From assembly GCF_030384885.1 (NCBI RefSeq), contig NZ_CP128613.1: DNA of 64,000 nucleotides, one strand, 5' to 3'. The notes under the pieces are model-generated. The model saw nothing but the letters and a program-made list of their open reading frames with translations, made no database searches and was not told where the DNA came from. This stretch comes from Escherichia coli. Lineage in GTDB: Bacteria > Pseudomonadota > Gammaproteobacteria > Enterobacterales > Enterobacteriaceae. Below are positions 38,842-63,395 of the stretch, piece after piece (positions within the stretch are counted from its first letter, which is position 1; each line of letters opens with the position of its first letter). A program made the position numbers and the translations under genes.

Positions 38842-38982
38842 TTCAGTACCTCACGACTCGGACAAAATGCCGTTGCGCGCACAGTTCAACGCAACTTATT
38901 TTGTTAAAAACATGTAAATGATTTTTTATTGTGCGCTCAGTATAGGAAGGGTGTTTTCGGCTACAATCAAAACATGCCTGAG

Positions 38983-54655: not shown

Positions 54656-56542
54656 TTACTCTTCCATCGCCTGGCGGATCTGATCCAACGACGCAGGATC
54701 ATCAATGGTCGTCAGATCTCCCGGATCGCGTCCTTCACAAATCGCCTGGATCGTGCGGCGCAGCATTTTTCCGGATCGCGTTTTTGGCAATTGCGAGACA
54801 AACCAGACGTGCGCCGGGCGGCCAAAGTTGCCAATCTGGCTGTCCACCAGCGCCATAATCGCCTTCTCTTGCGAGTGCGCCACCTCGCGATCTTCCAGAC
54901 TGTCGCTCTCTTTCGGAATGACAAACGCCACCGCCACCTGCCCTTTCAGCGCATCTTTCACCCCAACCACCGCCACTTCAGCAACGCCCGGATGACTGGA
55001 GATACTCTCTTCAATCTCGCGTGTGCCAAGCCGATGCCCGGCAACATTAATCACATCGTCAGTGCGCCCGAGAATAAAGTGATAACCGTCAGCGTCACGG
55101 ATGCCCCAGTCAAAAGTGGCATACACCGGACGGGAAAACAGCGACCAGTACGTCTTCACAAAGCGGTCGTCGTCGCCCCAGATGGTCTGAATACAGCCCG
55201 GCGGCAACGGCCCTTCCACCACCAGCATCCCTTTCTCATTGACGCCGCACGGTTCGCCGGTGACTTCATTGAGCAACTGCACGTTATAGCCATACATCGG
55301 CACGCCGGGGCTTCCCAGACGCGTCGGCCTGTCGTCCAGACCGCGAGCAATTGCCATAATCGGCCAGCCGGATTCGGTCTGCCAGTAGTTGTCGATGACC
55401 GGCACATCCAGCGTATTGCTCACCCAACTGGCGGTCGGCTCGTCCAGCGGTTCTCCCGCCAGATAGAGCACTTCCAGCGACGAGAGATCGTGTTTGCGAA
55501 TTTCAGCGGTAGGGAATTTTTTCAGCACGCGAATGGCGGTCGGCGCTGAGAACATCCGGCTAACCTGATATTTCTCGACGATTTTCCACCACACACCGCA
55601 GTCAGGATAAGTCGGCAATCCTTCGTAAACGATAGTCGCCATCCCCGCCAGCAGCGGCGCGTAGACGATATACGAATGCCCCACTACCCAGCCGATATCC
55701 GACGCACAGAAGAACACACCGCCCGCTTTGCCGCCAAAAATGGTGTCCATTGAGGTCGCCAGCGCCACCGCATAACCGCCGACGTCACGCTGTACGCCTT
55801 TTGGTTTGCCGGTCGTGCCGGAGGTGTAGAGAATGCAGGAGGTTTCGTTGGATTCCAGCCACGCCACCGGCACCCGCGCGCCGATGTGTTGATGGCGCAA
55901 CGACGCGAAATCGACATCCCGCCCGCTGACGCGCGCCATTTTCGCCAGCCCGCGATCCACCAGCAAAACGTGGCGCGGCTGATGCTGCGCCTGACTTATC
56001 GCATCGTCGAGCAATTTTTTATAAGGAATGATTTTGCCACCGCGCGCTCCGGCATCTGCCGAGACAATCAGCACCGGTTTAGCGTCATCAATCCGCGCAG
56101 CCACGCTGTGCGAGGCAAATCCACCAAACACTACCGAGTGAATAGCGCCAATGCGCGCGCAGGCCAGCAGGGTAATATGCGCTTCGGCAATCATCGGCAT
56201 ATACACCAGCACCCGATCGCCACGCCGTACGCCCAGTGAGCGCAGCATTGACGCCACCGCGTTCACTTCGTCATGCAACTGGCGAAAGGTAAAGGTGCGC
56301 TCTTCTTCTGTTTCCGAAGAGACGGCAATTAATGCCAGCGCCTCTGGCTGTTTCTCCAGCCAGCGGTCGATGGCGTTATGACACAAATTGGTTCGGCCTT
56401 CACAAAACCAACGGGCAAACGGCGGATTGCTGTGATCGAGCGTTTGCGTAAAGGGCGTCTGCCAGTCAATACGCCGGGCCTGCTCGGCCCAGAATTGCTC
56501 CGGTTCGTTAATCGAACGCTGATAAAATTCGCTAAAAGACAT
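54656..56542 (-). CDS. prpE: Propionate--CoA ligase
   Basis: 628 aa acyl-CoA synthetase (TSGTTGKPKG AMP-binding motif). Confidence 0.95.
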   Translation of the reverse strand: MSFSEFYQRSINEPEQFWAEQARRIDWQTPFTQTLDHSNPPFARWFCEGRTNLCHNAIDRWLEKQPEALALIAVSSETEEERTFTFRQLHDEVNAVASMLRSLGVRRGDRVLVYMPMIAEAHITLLACARIGAIHSVVFGGFASHSVAARIDDAKPVLIVSADAGARGGKIIPYKKLLDDAISQAQHQPRHVLLVDRGLAKMARVSGRDVDFASLRHQHIGARVPVAWLESNETSCILYTSGTTGKPKGVQRDVGGYAVALATSMDTIFGGKAGGVFFCASDIGWVVGHSYIVYAPLLAGMATIVYEGLPTYPDCGVWWKIVEKYQVSRMFSAPTAIRVLKKFPTAEIRKHDLSSLEVLYLAGEPLDEPTASWVSNTLDVPVIDNYWQTESGWPIMAIARGLDDRPTRLGSPGVPMYGYNVQLLNEVTGEPCGVNEKGMLVVEGPLPPGCIQTIWGDDDRFVKTYWSLFSRPVYATFDWGIRDADGYHFILGRTDDVINVAGHRLGTREIEESISSHPGVAEVAVVGVKDALKGQVAVAFVIPKESDSLEDREVAHSQEKAIMALVDSQIGNFGRPAHVWFVSQLPKTRSGKMLRRTIQAICEGRDPGDLTTIDDPASLDQIRQAMEE

Positions 56543-56581: not shown

Positions 56582-58033
56582 TTAAATGACGTACAGGTCG
56601 AGATACTCATTGACCGGCATCTGTTCCAGGCGAGCTCTGTCGAGAGAAACGTCCAGAATGCGCTGCTGCTGTCGAGTCGGGAACTGGCGCGCGAGGTTGA
56701 TTTTGAATTTATCGACCAGTTTCGGAATACCGTCATGGCGGCGACGAGCATGACCAATTGGGTACTCCACCACCACTTCTTCAAATCGCGTACCGTCGGT
56801 AAACTCAAGGGTAATGGCATTGGCGATGGCGCGTTTTTCCGGGTCGTGGTAGTCAGCGGTAAATGCCGGATCTTCAAAGCAATTGATCTTCTCGCGCAGG
56901 GCGTCAATGCGTTTATCTTGCGCAACGTTGTCTTCGTAATCTGCCGCCGTTAAGCGCCCGAATAACAGCGGGATCGCCACCATGTACTGAATGCAGTGGT
57001 CGCGGTCAGCCGGGTTATTGAGCGGCCCTTTTTTGTCGATGATGCGAATACAGGCTTCGTGGGTGCGAATGGTCACTTTTTCGATATCTGCCGCCGTTTT
57101 GCCTGCTGCCTGCATCTGTTCATAGAGCGTCATCGCCGCTTCAACTGCCGTCTGGGAGTGGAACTCCGCCGGGAAGGAGATTTTGAACAGCACATTTTCC
57201 ATGACGTAGGAACCGTACGGGCGCTGGAAGCGGAACGATTCACCTTTAAAGGAGACGTCGTAGAAACCCCACACCGGCGCGGTCAGGGCTGACGGGTAAC
57301 CCATTTCGCCCGTTTTCGCCATCAGCGCCAGACGTACCGCGCGGGATGTAGCATCGCCCGCCGCCCAGGATTTACGCGTGCCGGTGTTCGGCGCATGGCG
57401 GTAGGTGCGCAGCGACTGTCCGTCTACCCATGCCAGCGAAACGGCGTTGAGGATTTCATCACGGGTCAGGCCAAGCATTTCGGCGACCACGGCGGTGGAA
57501 GCCACTTTCACTAACAGAACGTGGTCGAGACCGACGCGATTAAAGGAGTTTTCCAGCGCGATGCAGCCCTGAATTTCATGGGCTTTAATCATTCCGGTCA
57601 GCACCTGTTTCATGGTCAACGGCGTTTTGCCGCTGGCGACCGCGTTGCGCGAAAGCCAGTCCGCCGTTGCCAGAATGCCGCCGAGGTTGTCGGAAGGATG
57701 GCCCCACTCCGCCGCCAGCCAGGTATCGTTGAAATCGAGCCAGCGGATCATCGCGCCAATGTTAAATGCCGCCTGAACGGGGTCGAGCTGGAACTGGGTT
57801 CCAGGGACGCGTACGCCGTTAGGTACGACGGTGCCGGGGACAATTGGCCCCAGCAGTTTTTTACAGGCCGGGTATTCGAGAGCTTCCAGACCGCAGCCGA
57901 GAGTGTCAAGCAGGCAGTAATGGGCGGTGTCGTAGGCTACTTTGGAGCTAATTTCGTAGTTCATCACGTAATCGACGATATCAACGATTTCACGATCAAA
58001 TTCCGGACGGATGTTGTTAATTTGAGCTGACAT
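56582..58033 (-). CDS. prpD: 2-methylcitrate dehydratase
   Basis: 483 aa MmgE/PrpD-family protein. Confidence 0.95.
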
Positions 58034-58066: not shown

Positions 58067-59236
58067 TTACTGGCGCTTATCCAGCGCGACAAACTGGCGG
58101 TCTTCCGGTCCAACGTAATTGGCGGAAGGACGGATAATTTTGTTGTCCTGACGTTGTTCGATAATGTGCGCTGCCCAGCCGGTGACGCGGGCGATAACAA
58201 ACAGTGGCGTGAACATCTCGGTGGGAACGCCCATCATGTTGTAGGAAACAGCGGAGAACCAGTCGAGATTGGGGAACATCTTTTTGCTCTCCCACATCAC
58301 CGCTTCCAGACGATCGGCGATGTTGTACATCTTCAGCGAGCCGCCTTCCTGCGAGAGCTGCTTCGCCACGCGTTTGATCACCTGATGACGCGGGTCAGCG
58401 ATGGTATAAACCGGATGTCCAAAACCAATCACCACTTCTTTGTTTTCCACGCGCTTGCGGATATCGGCTTCGGCTTCGTCCGGCGTTTCGTAGCGTTGCT
58501 GGATCTCCAGCGACACTTCATTCGCCCCGCCGTGTTTCGGCCCGCGCAGTGCGCCAATCGCGCCGATAATCGCTGAATACATGTCAGAGCCGGTGCCCGC
58601 AATCACCCGGCTGGTAAAGGTGGAGGCGTTAAACTCGTGTTCGGCGTACAGCACCAGCGAAATATGCATCGCCTTTTCCCAGCTTTGCGACGGCTTTTCG
58701 CCATGCAGCAGATGCAGGAAGTGACCGCCGATGGAGTCGTCATCGGTTTCCGGCTGAATGCGTTCGCCGTTGTGGCTGTAGTGATACCAGTAGAGAAGAA
58801 TCGAGCTAAGTGATGCCAGCAGTTTGTCGGCAATATCACGCGCGCCGGAGACGGTATGCCCCTCTTTTTCTGGCAGCGTGCAGCCGAGCGCGGAAACGCC
58901 GGTGCGCATGACATCCATCGGATGCGACGCCGCTGGTAAGGCTTCCAGCACGGTACGCACGTTAGCCGGTAAACCGCGCAGGGCTTTCAGTTTCGTTTTG
59001 TAGGCGGCGAGTTCGTCACGGGTCGGCAGTTTGCCGTGGATCAGCAGATGCGCCACTTCTTCAAATTCGCAATGTTCCGCCAGATCAAGAATGTCGTAGC
59101 CGCGGTAATGCAAATCATTGCCACTTTTACCCACGGTGCAGAGCGCCGTATTGCCCGCCGGAACGCCAGAAAGTGCCACAGATTTTTTTGGTTTAATGAC
59201 ATGGGTACTGTTTTGCAGGATCGTTGTGTCGCTCAT
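58067..59236 (-). CDS. prpC: 2-methylcitrate synthase
   Basis: 389 aa citrate-synthase-family protein. Confidence 0.95.
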
Positions 59237-59275
59237 GTTGTCCTCGTCATTGTTATCATTTGTAGGGTCGAGATT

Positions 59276-59465
59276 GTTGTCGGATGCGACGCTATGCGTC
59301 TTATCCGACCTACAGTTCAGTTCATCCCGTAGGCCTGATAAGCCGCGTCAGCGACGCATCAGGCATCGGTTGTCGGATGCGACGTCATGCGTCTTATCCG
59401 ACCTACAGTTCAGTTCATCCCGTAGGCCTGATAAGCCGCGTCAGCGGCGCATCAGGCATCGGTTG
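59276..59465. repeat. BIME/REP tandem array, two units with 94 bp period
   Basis: TTGTCGGATGCGACG..ATGCGTCTTATCCGACCTACAGTTCAGTTCATCCCGTAGGCCTGATAAGCCGCGTCAGCG.CGCATCAGGCATCGG repeated from 59276 and 59370. Confidence 0.8.
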
Positions 59466-59489
59466 TCGAATACAACCAAAGGGCGTTTT

Positions 59490-60380
59490 TTATTTCGCCT
59501 GGTTACGGGCAAACAGGTCGTCGAGCTTTTCTTCGTACTGGTAGTAGTTAATGCTTTCATACAGCTCGTTGCGGGTCTGCATGGTGTCGATGACGCTTTT
59601 CTGCGTGCCTTCCTGGCGCAGGACGTTGTAGACATGTTCAGCGGCGCGGTTCATGGCGCGGAAAGCAGAAAGGGGATACAGCGCCATTGCGACATGGGCG
59701 CTGCGTAATTCGTCGGTGGTAAACAGCGGTGTTGCGCCAAACTCGGTAATGTTGGCAAGGATTGGCACCTGCACCGCATCGGCAAACTGGCGGTACATAG
59801 CGAGTTCGGTAATTGCTTCCGGGAACAACATTTCGGCACCCGCTTCAACATAGGCCTGCGCACGCTCGAGCGCCGCATCCAGCCCTTCAACCGCCAGCGC
59901 ATCGGTGCGCGCCATGATCACAAAATCAGGATCGGTTTTCGCATCCACCGCCGCGCGGATCCGATCCACCATCTCTTCTTTCGAGACGATCGCTTTGTTC
60001 GGGCGATGACCGCAGCGTTTTGCTCCAACCTGATCTTCAATATGTAAGCCCGCCGCACCGGCTTTAATCATCGATTTCACAGTGCGGGCAACGTTAAAAG
60101 CCGAAGAGCCAAAACCGATATCCGCATCCACCAGCAGCGGCAGCGAGCAGACGTCAGTGATACGACGAATATCAGTCAGCACATCATCAAGAGTAGAAAT
60201 ACCGAGATCCGGCAACCCCAGCGAACCTGCCGCCACACCACCGCCGGAGAGATAAATCGCCTGATATCCGGCACGCTGCGCCAACAGCGCATGATTAGCG
60301 TTGATGGTGCCGACAATCTGCAATGGATTTTCTTTAGACAGTGCAGCGCGAAACGCTTTACCCGGAGAGTGTAGAGACAT
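59490..60380 (-). CDS. prpB: 2-methylisocitrate lyase
   Basis: 296 aa isocitrate-lyase/PEP-mutase-family protein. Confidence 0.95.
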
Positions 60381-60426
60381 AGCCCATCCTTTGTTATCAA
60401 CTTGTTATTTACGTTGATAAACTCAA

Positions 60427-60442
60427 AGCAAGGGGTGTGCCA
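60427..60442 (-). promoter_or_regulatory. Sigma-54 promoter (-24/-12) of prpBCDE
   Basis: Minus strand reads TGGCACACCCCTTGCT (TGGCAC-N5-TTGC), about 45 bp upstream of the prpB start. Confidence 0.6.
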
Positions 60443-60618
60443 CAATTACATGGATGAAATTAAATGTTTTATTTCAATTTGTTAGAGAAAAAGTCATGAA
60501 GTAATCTGCAAATATGCGTTTCAGTTAACGTTTCAGGCAATGTTTCACTGCGTTTCATTGCAACAATTATGAAACAAGACTAAACCCAATATTCGGTTTC
60601 TTAACTTTGCGGTGCGCT

Positions 60619-62205
60619 ATGGCACATCCACCACGGCTGAATGACGACAAACCGGTTATCTGGACGGTATCTGTAACGCGGCTGTTCGAGCTGTTTCGCG
60701 ATATCAGTCTCGAGTTTGATCACCTGGCAAACATTACCCCTATCCAGCTTGGCTTTGAAAAAGCGGTGGCCTACATCCGCAAAAAACTGGCCAGCGAACG
60801 CTGCGACGCCATCATTGCCGCTGGCTCTAACGGCGCGTACCTGAAAAGCCGCCTGTCGGTACCGGTGATTCTGATAAAACCGAGTGGCTACGATGTGTTA
60901 CAGGCACTGGCAAAAGCCGGAAAACTCACCTCTTCTATCGGCGTTGTCACCTATCAGGAAACCATTCCGGCACTGGTAGCGTTTCAAAAAACCTTTAATT
61001 TGCGCCTCGACCAACGTAGCTACATTACCGAAGAAGACGCACGTGGGCAGATTAACGAGCTAAAAGCCAACGGCACCGAAGCGGTGGTCGGCGCGGGGCT
61101 GATTACCGATCTGGCAGAAGAAGCCGGAATGACCGGAATTTTTATCTATTCTGCCGCCACCGTGCGCCAGGCATTTAGCGATGCGCTGGATATGACGCGC
61201 ATGTCGTTACGCCATAATACTCACGATGCCACCCGCAACGCCCTGCGTACTCGTTACGTGCTGGGCGATATGCTCGGTCAATCACCACAGATGGAACAAG
61301 TACGGCAGACTATTTTGCTGTATGCCCGCTCCAGTGCGGCGGTGTTGATTGAAGGGGAAACGGGGACGGGCAAAGAGCTGGCGGCCCAGGCGATTCATCG
61401 GGAATATTTTGCCCGCCACGATGCGCGACAGGGCAAAAAGTCGCATCCTTTTGTTGCCGTCAACTGCGGGGCGATTGCTGAATCTCTGCTGGAAGCGGAG
61501 CTGTTTGGCTATGAGGAAGGAGCGTTTACCGGCTCGCGACGCGGAGGCCGCGCCGGGCTGTTCGAAATTGCCCACGGCGGTACGCTGTTTCTTGACGAGA
61601 TAGGCGAAATGCCGCTGCCGTTGCAGACCCGGCTGCTGCGGGTGCTGGAAGAAAAAGAGGTCACCCGCGTCGGCGGGCATCAGCCTGTTCCGGTGGATGT
61701 GCGGGTTATTAGCGCCACTCACTGCAATCTCGAAGAGGATATGCAGCAAGGGCGTTTTCGCCGTGATCTGTTTTATCGACTGAGTATTTTGCGTCTGCAA
61801 TTGCCGCCGCTACGCGAGCGGGTGGCGGATATTCTGCCGCTGGCGGAAAGCTTTTTGAAAGTGTCACTGGCGGCACTTACTGCGCCGTTTTCTTCCGCGT
61901 TACGTCAGGGATTACAGGCAAGTGAAACTGTGCTGTTGCGCTACGACTGGCCGGGAAATATTCGTGAACTGCGCAATATGATGGAACGACTGGCGCTATT
62001 TTTAAGTGTGGAACCAACGCCGGATTTAACGCCGCAATTTTTGCAGTTGCTACTGCCGGAACTGGCGCGCGAGTCGGAGGAAACTCCCGCTCCACGTTTA
62101 CTGACGCCACAACAGGCACTGGAGAAATTTAATGGCGATAAAACAGCCGCGGCGAATTATTTAGGTATCAGCCGAACGACATTCTGGCGGCGGCTGAAAA
62201 ACTGA
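60619..62205 (+). CDS. prpR: Sigma-54-dependent activator of the prp operon
   Basis: ORF 60607-62205; start [17 protein letters not shown] at 60619; AAA+ core ([13 protein letters not shown]) and C-terminal HTH. Confidence 0.9.
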
Positions 62206-62302
62206 AATGCCGAATCCAGCGCGAACGCCTTATCCGGCATAAATTTCAATAGATGATCACCGATAAACTTACGCATCGGGCATGTTTACATGGGGTGCAG
62301 AA

Positions 62303-62578
62303 TTATTTCTTCTTATAAATATTTGCCGTGCCGTGGATCTTATTGTCAGTTTGACCAGAGGTCAGCACCAACACATCTGCCCCTTTTTCATCCGCTTTTT
62401 TGATCAGATCTTCTTTCGCATCTGCAGTCGACATTTCATTACTGGTTGAAATATCACCTATTTTTTCATATTGCGATGCAACTTTTTCAAATTCTGCTTT
62501 GGTCATTAATTCTGCGGCATAAACGTTGGTAACGGCAAACGCTAACGCACCGATTAACATTTTAGAGATTATTTTCAT
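62303..62578 (-). CDS. yahO: DUF1471-family periplasmic protein YahO
   Basis: 91 aa with signal peptide [21 protein letters not shown]. Confidence 0.85.
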
Positions 62579-62762
62579 ATTACGGCTCCAGAGTTGTTAT
62601 CAAACTATCACCCACCCATATTATTGGGCTGATTAATAATTAGTTCAGTCAGGGCATAAACGCCAGTAACCGGAAATAAGACACTTTGTGATCTCTCTCG
62701 CATCCGATTACTTTTTGTAGAAATATGATGAAGTTACTTCACTTATTTATGGATGAAATCAC

Positions 62763-63395
62763 ATGGATCCCTTGCACGCCGTTTACCTGACCGTAGGACT
62801 GTTCGTGATGACTTTTTTTAATCCGGGAGCCAATCTTTTTGTGGTGGTGCAAACCAGCCTGGCTTCCGGTCGACGCGCAGGAGTGCTGACCGGGTTGGGC
62901 GTGGCACTGGGCGATGCGTTTTATTCCGGGTTGGGTTTGTATGGTCTTGCGACACTCATTACGCAGTGTGAGGAGATTTTTTCGCTTATTAGAATCGTCG
63001 GCGGCGCTTATCTCTTATGGTTTGCGTGGTGCAGCATGCGCCGCCAGTCGACACCGCAAATAAGCACACTACAACAACCGATTAGCGCCCCCTGGTATGT
63101 CTTTTTTCGCCGTGGATTAATTACCGATCTCTCTAATCCACAGACCGTTTTATTTTTTATCAGTATTTTCTCAGTAACGTTAAATGCTGAAACACCAACT
63201 TGGGCACGTTTAATGGCTTGGGCGGGAATTGTGTTCGCATCAATTATCTGGCGAGTCTTTCTTAGTCAGGCGTTTTCTTTGCCCGCTGTGCGTCGTGCTT
63301 ATGGGCGTATGCAACGCGTTGCCAGTCGGGTTATTGGTGCAATTATTGGTGTATTCGCGCTACGCCTGATTTACGAAGGAGTAACGCAGCGGTGA
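62763..63395 (+). CDS. yahN: LysE/RhtB-family amino acid exporter
   Basis: 210 aa polytopic membrane protein; the upstream ATGs at 62725/62728 are in a different frame and run into a stop. Confidence 0.85.
   Translation: MDPLHAVYLTVGLFVMTFFNPGANLFVVVQTSLASGRRAGVLTGLGVALGDAFYSGLGLYGLATLITQCEEIFSLIRIVGGAYLLWFAWCSMRRQSTPQISTLQQPISAPWYVFFRRGLITDLSNPQTVLFFISIFSVTLNAETPTWARLMAWAGIVFASIIWRVFLSQAFSLPAVRRAYGRMQRVASRVIGAIIGVFALRLIYEGVTQR

Follow-up and report, generated by a model that had tools for sequence, protein, structure and literature searches.

A propionate control region between prpB and prpR in Escherichia coli, with a five-hexamer GTTTCA array and an ArcA-type box in the prpB leader

Positions 60381-60618 of the window, by which we mean the whole 64,000-nt stretch of Escherichia coli chromosome that was analysed, very probably control propionate use through the 2-methylcitrate cycle, with PrpR-binding repeats upstream that drive a sigma-54 promoter. 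The region is the well-studied prpR/prpBCDE propionate switch, an ordinary and already known system. The main finding adds nothing new, as the genetics and biochemistry of prpR-PprpB have already been dissected in Salmonella, and the E. coli prpR-PprpB pair already serves in biotechnology for propionate-inducible expression and as a biosensor. Our additions are modest: the count of five hexamers in the array, a difference from Salmonella in the promoter-proximal dyad, an ArcA-type box in the prpB leader, and a pairing between the GTTTCA hexamer and regulators that carry an SRTTLW helix. Our own analysis shows the sequence elements, with their significance, their conservation and the way they occur together with the PrpR DNA-binding helix. 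Dependence on PrpR, RpoN, IHF, CRP and 2-methylcitrate was taken from published Salmonella and K-12 work.

The region is 100% identical to the corresponding part of the E. coli 2013C-4282 chromosome, where RefSeq calls prpB on the minus strand and prpR on the plus strand. Since prpB has its edge at 60380 and prpR runs from 60619, the segment is exactly the whole 238-bp divergent spacer between the two genes (Table 1). The Pfam architecture of PrpR comprises PrpR_N (1.4e-51), Sigma54_activat (1e-65), AAA_lid_14 and HTH_8 (8.8e-11), and the gene beside the GTTTCA array therefore encodes a bEBP with a PrpR_N sensor, AAA+ and HTH domains. RefSeq annotation and Pfam domains thus bear out the identities given to prpB and the divergent prpR in an earlier note, which had been made from the sequence without database searches.

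Table 1. Positions of genes and of observed or predicted elements in and around the prpB-prpR spacer
Feature	Sequence or description	Positions	Strand	Basis
prpE		54656-56542	-	ORF, Pfam AMP-binding
prpD		56582-58033	-	ORF, Pfam MmgE_PrpD
prpC		58067-59236	-	ORF, Pfam Citrate_synt
prpB	2-methylisocitrate lyase, first gene of prpBCDE	59490..60380	-	ORF, RefSeq, Pfam PEP_mutase/ICL
Putative Shine-Dalgarno of prpB	AGGA, 6 nt ahead of ATG	60387..60390	-	read from sequence, inferred
ArcA-type box	TTGTTATCAACTTGTTAT, TGTTA repeats at 60392-60396 and 60403-60407, 11 bp apart	60391..60408	+	matrix, conservation
Inverted repeat	TTATCAAC-N11-GTTGATAA; 8-nt arms, 11-nt spacer	60394-60401 and 60413-60420	.	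arms 100% complementary
Predicted prpBCDE transcription start	12 nt past the -12 C at 60428	60416 (+/- ~2 nt)	-	standard sigma-54 geometry
Sigma-54 promoter of prpBCDE	TGGCACACCCCTTGCT, TGGCAC (-24) ACCCC TTGCT (-12)	60442..60427	-	consensus, conservation, published data
Variable promoter-enhancer spacer	holds the IHF-like site	60443..60515	.	9/73 mismatches, most variable Escherichia columns
Candidate IHF bending site	A/T tract, then TTTCAATTTGTTA; centre ~-62	60457..60484	+	consensus scan
Weak CRP-like candidate	ATATGCGTTTCAGTTAACGTTT, overlaps the first two GTTTCA	60512..60533	+	14/22 to CRP consensus
Predicted PrpR enhancer (UAS)	five-hexamer array	60516..60576	+	clustering, alignment, conservation
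prpR-proximal segment	presumed prpR promoter and leader; palindrome AAACCCAATATTCGGTTT (60582-60599)	60577..60618	+	near-invariance
prpR	sigma-54 enhancer-binding protein sensing 2-methylcitrate	60619..62205	+	RefSeq, Pfam

The sigma-54 promoter is the sole zero-mismatch TGGCAC-N5-TTGCW in the 64-kb window, and it is oriented toward prpB. The gap from its 3' end to the prpB ATG (60380) measures 46 nt, so the earlier placement of a minus-strand promoter about 45 bp from prpB was correct. A TGGCAY-N5-TTGC element facing prpB was kept in the 12 orthologous loci with a divergent adjacent prpB, ranging from Escherichia to Burkholderiales and Xanthomonas. The promoter also corresponds to mapped sites. 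The Salmonella prpB sigma-54 site, TGGCATAGCCTTTGCTTT, has been mapped by ChIP-chip, with a 45-fold WT/rpoN expression ratio (PMC3844500), and the K-12 prpR/prpB spacer was selected by RpoN holoenzyme as a peak in genomic SELEX (gSELEX) (PMC8743547). Transcription of prpBCDE would start near 60416 if standard sigma-54 promoter geometry applies.

Upstream of the promoter, GTTTCA occurs on the plus strand at 60518, 60530, 60542 and 60552, and TGAAAC at 60570 provides a copy on the minus strand; the steps between successive copies are 12, 12, 10 and 18 bp. These five copies in 58 bp (60518-60575) compare with 0.085 expected (P value = 3.5e-8) and form the window's only cluster of the motif. Across the whole 64 kb there were 39 copies against 37 expected, with no overall enrichment, so the signal lies in the clustering. 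The earlier note had reported three copies within 60541-60575, including a palindrome GTTTCAT-N10-ATGAAAC. These three (60542 and 60552 on the plus strand, 60570 on the minus strand) and the palindrome are there as described, but the count was incomplete, with two further copies at 60518 and 60530. The best-conserved block of the spacer, cGTTTCAttgcaacaattaTGAAACa (60551-60576), contains this palindrome and has the form cGTTTCAttgcaacaWttaTGAAACa. Counted from the predicted prpB start, the array covers about -102 to -159, and its distance from the promoter is typical enhancer geometry.

We compared the array across prp loci from two sources. A genome scan with PrpR gave 14 full-length orthologous loci (E. 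albertii, Citrobacter, two Photorhabdus, nine Oxalobacteraceae/Burkholderiales and one Xanthomonas) and 66 other bEBP loci sharing only the AAA+ and HTH regions; the scan was dominated by matches to the shared AAA+ motif, and no Salmonella was among its returns. A metagenome scan with the published sigma-54 18-mer found four further prp loci among 120 matches (L087, L143, L181 and L108, with L087 equal to L143 across the intergenic region), which we call Salmonella-like on the strength of two exact published sequences and not of a label. Within 160 bp ahead of prpR, GTTTCA/TGAAAC occurred 41 times over these 14 orthologous loci, where the remaining sequence of the loci would predict 0.96, and 12 of the 14 had at least one copy. 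In the Enterobacteriaceae alignment, the copies at 60530, 60552 and 60570 were invariant, that at 60518 read GTGTCA in Citrobacter and the Salmonella-like loci, and that at 60542 was specific to E. coli.

The PrpR enhancer is tabulated in a review as CGTTTCATGAAACG, from Palacios & Escalante-Semerena 2004 (PMC4987338). This sequence is GTTTCA placed back to back with its complement, the same half-site as in the E. coli array. The published enhancer, aaCGTTTCATGAAACGaa, was exact in all four Salmonella-like loci and aligned with the second E. coli copy (60530). The exact 14-mer is absent from the 64-kb window, where the best matches in the array (60517 and 60529) carry 3 mismatches, and the DNase I footprint of PrpR is from Salmonella only (Palacios 2004, cited in PMC4987338). 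Since the E. coli array is without the exact 14-bp palindrome, naming the hexamers occupied by PrpR there is an extrapolation, and we offer its occupancy, hexamer by hexamer, as a prediction. The published half-site, the clustering, the enrichment in orthologues and the distance from the promoter together support the earlier suggestion that the motifs are placed like PrpR enhancer sites.

The layout matches that of Salmonella enterica LT2 prpR-prpBCDE (Horswill & Escalante-Semerena 1997; Palacios & Escalante-Semerena 2000, 2004), which has the same divergent arrangement, a sigma-54 -24/-12 promoter, a GTTTCA/TGAAAC PrpR enhancer, dependence on IHF, and 2-methylcitrate as co-activator. The distal element, the conserved block described above, is identical in Salmonella and E. 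coli but for one base. The promoter-proximal dyad differs: it is a perfect GTTTCATGAAAC in the Salmonella-like and Citrobacter loci, whereas E. coli has GTTTCAGGCAAT and reads cGTTTCAGGCAAT at the palindrome-aligned position, with a degenerate right half and an extra GTTTCA 6 bp on. The spacer is also 49-61 bp longer in the Salmonella-like and Citrobacter loci than in E. coli. According to the literature, the Salmonella prp expression system is about threefold stronger than the E. coli one; the five hexamers and the degenerate proximal dyad of E. coli may relate to this difference, and such details could help those who engineer the system.

We also weighed whether the array mainly controls prpR itself, as part of its promoter, as a CRP site or in autoregulation, instead of acting as the prpBCDE enhancer. 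This reading would suit the position of the array, whose near end lies just 43 bp before the prpR start codon, as well as the literature, in which CRP activates both promoters from the prpR/prpB spacer, and the weak CRP-like match over copies 1 and 2. However, the array holds no consensus-quality CRP site, the published PrpR enhancer is the GTTTCA motif, and in two distant bEBP loci, L024 and L021, the arrays come after the regulator gene and ahead of a sigma-54 promoter. The order in L024, a spirochaete locus, is regulator gene, array, A/T-rich stretch, promoter TGGCATAGTTTCTGCA and next gene, and L021 is similar. Because the arrays of these two loci sit before target promoters, the array goes with the target promoter and not with the regulator's own. 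We consider control of prpR as the main task of the array to be very improbable; a dual role, in prpR and prpBCDE, is possible.

The enhancer reading extends to a proposed recognition code. By C-terminal HTH alignment, arrays of at least 3 copies accompanied 10 of the 16 regulators with the HTH helix SRTTLW versus 1 of the 53 others (P value = 2.4e-7), and GTTTCA arrays were also present in 3 of the 66 "control" bEBP loci. This pattern supports GTTTCA as the sequence that the SRTTLW(R) recognition helix would read. The code may perhaps be common to all bEBPs with an SRTTLWR helix, among them regulators in Spirochaetes, Desulfobacterota and Bacillota that have nothing to do with propionate. The steps between copies in the same orientation clustered at 10-12 bp, which suggests that the half-sites are aligned on one face of the helix. 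The PrpR enhancer may be not "two dyads" but about six GTTTCA-type half-sites in phase, with one for each subunit of the hexamer. Enhancers of bEBPs with several sites and IHF include those of NtrC at glnAp2, NifA at nifH and NorR at norV (three sites), in which the activator sites lie 80-160 bp upstream, with an IHF bend between them and the sigma-54 closed complex. The prp array differs from these in being phased and made mostly of direct repeats with 10-12 bp steps, with the inverted copies last, whereas theirs are two to three discrete palindromes at fixed spacing.

Secondary sources give PrpR, sigma-54, IHF, cAMP-CRP and 2-methylcitrate as all required, and IHF as genetically required in Salmonella (Palacios 2000, via secondary sources). 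Between the array and the promoter, TTTCAATTTGTTA (60472-60484) has one mismatch to WATCAANNNNTTR, and a perfect IHF consensus occupies the same relative place in the betaproteobacterial/Xanthomonas loci L010, L011, L015 and L016. The Salmonella-like loci, in which the IHF requirement was shown, had no IHF consensus within one mismatch. We regard 60457-60484 as a candidate IHF site from its match and position. Another match, the perfect consensus TATCAACTTGTTA (60395-60407), was rejected as a bending site because of its place downstream of the promoter, its overlap with a TGTTA repeat and its absence from the Salmonella-like loci. A CRP site has been described as overlapping the PrpR operator (Lee 2005, quoted in PMC9452892). 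The best CRP-like candidate within the array, at 60512-60533, has 4 mismatches in the 10 core positions; the enhancer contained no TGTGA-N6-TCACA with three or fewer core mismatches, and the sole such match lay over the prpR start codon (60611-60626).

In the mechanism that we propose, PrpR would be made from its own promoter adjoining the array, whose GTTTCA/TGAAAC half-sites (60516-60576) it would bind by means of a C-terminal Fis-type helix-turn-helix. 2-Methylcitrate would relieve the inhibition by PrpR_N, allowing the AAA+ domains to form an active ring, and IHF would bend the A/T-rich spacer at the candidate site 60457-60484. The bound activator could then touch sigma-54 RNA polymerase in the closed complex at TGGCAC-N5-TTGCT (60427-60442, minus strand), and ATP hydrolysis by the AAA+ ring would open the promoter, so that prpBCDE would be transcribed from about 60416. 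As a secondary and less certain step, ArcA-P on TGTTA-N6-TGTTA (60391-60408) might block the promoter when respiration is impossible.

This last step draws on a direct repeat that covers about +9 to +25 of the prpB leader, counted from the predicted start. TGTTA-N6-TGTTA occurs once in the 64-kb window, compared with 0.12 expected. We scored the window with an ArcA information matrix built from the 115 published boxes in Table S3 of Park et al. 2013, which reproduces their Ri within about 0.5 bit. The top match was the ChIP-verified mhpA ArcA site at 38901 (19.7 bits), and only two other sites reached at least 16 bits, both in the prp spacer. One was 60391-60408 itself, at 16.1 bits, where the training boxes average 15.7 (shuffle P value = 0.0013). 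The other, also at 16.1 bits, was 60560-60577 on the minus strand, where it overlaps the PrpR palindrome; its score probably reflects the likeness of GTTTCA to an ArcA half-site. At the equivalent position beside the prpB Shine-Dalgarno, the box scored 16.1 bits in Citrobacter and 18.2 and 19.2 bits in the Salmonella-like loci, and in Photorhabdus the position holds two overlapping boxes, with three repeats at 11 bp that reach the start site. No ArcA-type box was present at this position in the betaproteobacteria examined. Shuffles of the leader segment gave P values from 5e-5 to 0.024 across loci, and the box was invariant in five Escherichia sequences.

Published data on ArcA bear on this region in several ways. 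Park et al. 2013 placed a predicted ArcA site, scoring 15 bits or more, upstream of prpR, found prpR up 2.9-fold in an arcA mutant, and had no ArcA ChIP peak at the prp intergenic region (PMC3798270). Given the second 16.1-bit site in the PrpR palindrome, their prediction may refer to that site. Under their glucose conditions, we infer that prpBCDE was uninformative on ArcA. The prp box resembles the ArcA boxes of Park et al. 2013 (PMC3798270) in its TGTTA-type direct repeats at 11 bp centre to centre, in the extra repeats seen in some species, and in overlapping the promoter of a carbon-oxidation pathway; it differs in the missing ChIP peak and in that repression of the sigma-54 promoter would be exerted from beyond its start. 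We rate TGTTA-N6-TGTTA (60391-60408) as an ArcA-P operator over the prpB leader at somewhat less than an even chance. In Escherichia, Citrobacter, Salmonella and Photorhabdus, such an operator may block the sigma-54 promoter from a position past the transcription start, and 60560-60577, overlapping the PrpR array, could possibly be a second point of competition, there between ArcA and PrpR.

The main alternative to an ArcA box is that the TGTTA repeats act in RNA, where the 36-nt prpB leader would carry them as UAACA motifs, for example in an Hfq/sRNA interaction or as a translation-enhancing element. In all four genera the promoter-distal repeat stands directly 5' of the Shine-Dalgarno, 11-12 nt from the start codon. 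The leader reads AAUAACAAG...GAUAACAAAGGA and is rich in A-R-N triplets, which Hfq prefers. The missing ChIP peak in Park et al. 2013 (PMC3798270) would also agree with a role in RNA. Against this, the 11-bp spacing and the flanking bases exceed the training mean of the ArcA matrix and fit better still in the Salmonella-like loci, and the third Photorhabdus repeat, again at 11 bp and reaching the start, follows a pattern that Park et al. describe for ArcA sites. We consider the RNA-level reading unlikely. If the ArcA operator is real, it sits in the commonly cloned promoter fragment, and propionate biosensors would then be oxygen-dependent in the gut. That prpBCDE is under direct redox control by ArcA-P and also that the PrpR enhancer is a phased array of about six half-sites is, as a joint proposal, conceivable and on the doubtful side.

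The left arm of an inverted repeat lies inside the ArcA-type box, and its right arm spans the predicted start. The earlier note had given this repeat as 60394-60419; the 8-bp arms are real, but the end is at 60420, one base further. When the intergenic region was shuffled, 8% of the shuffled versions contained such a repeat, and the window mean is 0.22 per 238 bp, so on its own it is unremarkable. We considered whether the repeat is itself functional, as a symmetric operator for a dimeric regulator at the start or as a hairpin in the prpB mRNA leader. Its 8-bp arms are perfect, neither changes among five Escherichia sequences although the spacer between them does, and Citrobacter retains a version with 6-bp arms. 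The repeat is nevertheless not statistically unusual, E. albertii has the arm spacing altered by 1 bp, and neither Photorhabdus nor the Salmonella-like loci have kept the right arm, although both retain the direct TGTTA repeat. As RNA, the repeat gives -6.8 kcal/mol with z = -1.75; a search of 60381-60618 matched no Rfam family even at E = 1. The RNA hairpin was rejected on this weak z value and on the position of the 5' arm upstream of the predicted start, from which no hairpin is possible. These observations suggest that the inverted symmetry is incidental and that the ArcA-type direct repeat would be the conserved feature; we hold a function of the inverted repeat itself to be quite improbable.

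Variation within Escherichia was assessed in five sequences: this strain, K-12, O157:H7, Esc26 and E. albertii. The E. coli K-12 PprpB/prpR region used in pPro vectors (Lee & Keasling 2005) has the same length of 238 bp, with five GTTTCA, the promoter, the TGTTA repeats and the inverted repeat, and it differs by 13 substitutions, of which 9 fall in the 73-bp promoter-enhancer spacer. The array had 1 mismatch to K-12 in 61 positions and the prpR-proximal segment none in 42. The whole prp locus, coding sequence included, is about 94% identical to K-12, and the flanking genes are about 6% diverged, so the array is more conserved than they are. In the spacer between promoter and enhancer, a TGAAAT/ATTTCA near-palindrome (60455-60476) was rejected as extra PrpR half-sites; it is strain-specific and absent from K-12. 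A scan gave no sigma-70 consensus promoter for prpR, and the prpR-proximal segment had one variable column in the five sequences. Overall, 34 of the 238 columns were variable, with 8 of 106 positions inside predicted elements versus 26 of 132 outside them (Fisher P value = 0.009).

The leader of prpB carries a TGTTA-N6-TGTTA direct repeat, which was scored with an information matrix built from 115 published ArcA boxes (Park et al. 2013, PMC3798270; see the table). Locus comparison showed that the position of this repeat is kept in the Citrobacter, Salmonella-like and Photorhabdus loci, and this conserved sequence suggests direct redox repression of the sigma-54 prpB promoter by ArcA-P. The same matrix matched the box of mhpA, which is ChIP-verified in the list of Park et al. 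(PMC3798270) and places the mhpR/mhpA control region inside the window as well. A second match in the prp control region overlaps the PrpR enhancer, and GTTTCA arrays with steps of 10 to 12 bp inherently resemble ArcA direct repeats; PrpR and ArcA might therefore compete there, or the likeness of the two motifs may have produced a spurious match.

Features of the window and of compared loci (ArcA scores from the information matrix)
Feature	Position	Strand	Score (bits)	Remark
TGTTA-N6-TGTTA direct repeat	60391-60408		16.1	prpB leader
Second ArcA-matrix match	60560-60577	-	16.1	overlaps conserved PrpR palindrome
mhpA ArcA box TTGTTAAAAACATGTAAA	38901-38918		19.7	
Palindrome AAACCCAATATTCGGTTT	60582-60599			inside 60577-60618, before prpR start
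naRNA4 (RF02564) match	59332-59403		65.8	single match above gathering score
GTTTCA/TGAAAC array, Spirochaete bEBP locus	L024 4296-4455			just downstream of regulator gene
GTTTCA/TGAAAC array, Desulfofervidaceae MAG bEBP locus	L021 3445-3545			just downstream of regulator gene
GTTTCA/TGAAAC array, Bacillota MAG bEBP locus	L017 4152-4177			just downstream of regulator gene

The promoter-proximal part of the enhancer differs between species. The Salmonella-like and Citrobacter loci (L087 and L004) hold a perfect palindrome, GTTTCATGAAAC, whereas in E. coli it has been lost (60529-60547) and a new GTTTCA has arisen at 60542. These changes could be related to the reported threefold greater strength of the Salmonella prpR-PprpB expression system. 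At the other end of the region, the 42 bp preceding the prpR start (60577-60618) show no difference from K-12 and hardly vary across Escherichia, while the flanking genes diverge by about 6%. No sigma-70 promoter consensus for prpR was found in this presumed promoter and leader segment.

The entire prp locus with its flank (59490-63060) shares only about 94% DNA identity with K-12. When 5,426 complete genomes of E. coli were compared with 60300-60700, just one matched at 99% or more. Either the strain or its prp segment represents a divergent Escherichia lineage, or the segment was gained by recombination. Two other strains indicate that prp regulation is naturally lost in E. coli: in SCPM-O-B-9504, the locus has been rearranged by two copies of IS1, so that prpR is truncated and split from prpB, and in Esc26 prpR is annotated as frameshifted. 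Within the operon, the prpB-prpC spacer (59265-59500) gave several matches to Rfam naRNA4, which are REP-type repeats.

Among distant bEBPs, the presence of GTTTCA/TGAAAC arrays follows the HTH helix SRTTLW(R), and in the Spirochaete locus a clear sigma-54 promoter comes after the array. The SRTTLW helix is present in three PrpR orthologues (L006, L015 and L016) whose loci lack exact GTTTCA clusters. Two of them, L015 and L016, carry the variants GTTTCG/CGAAAC and GTTTCT where the array would sit, suggesting that the last base of the half-site has drifted.
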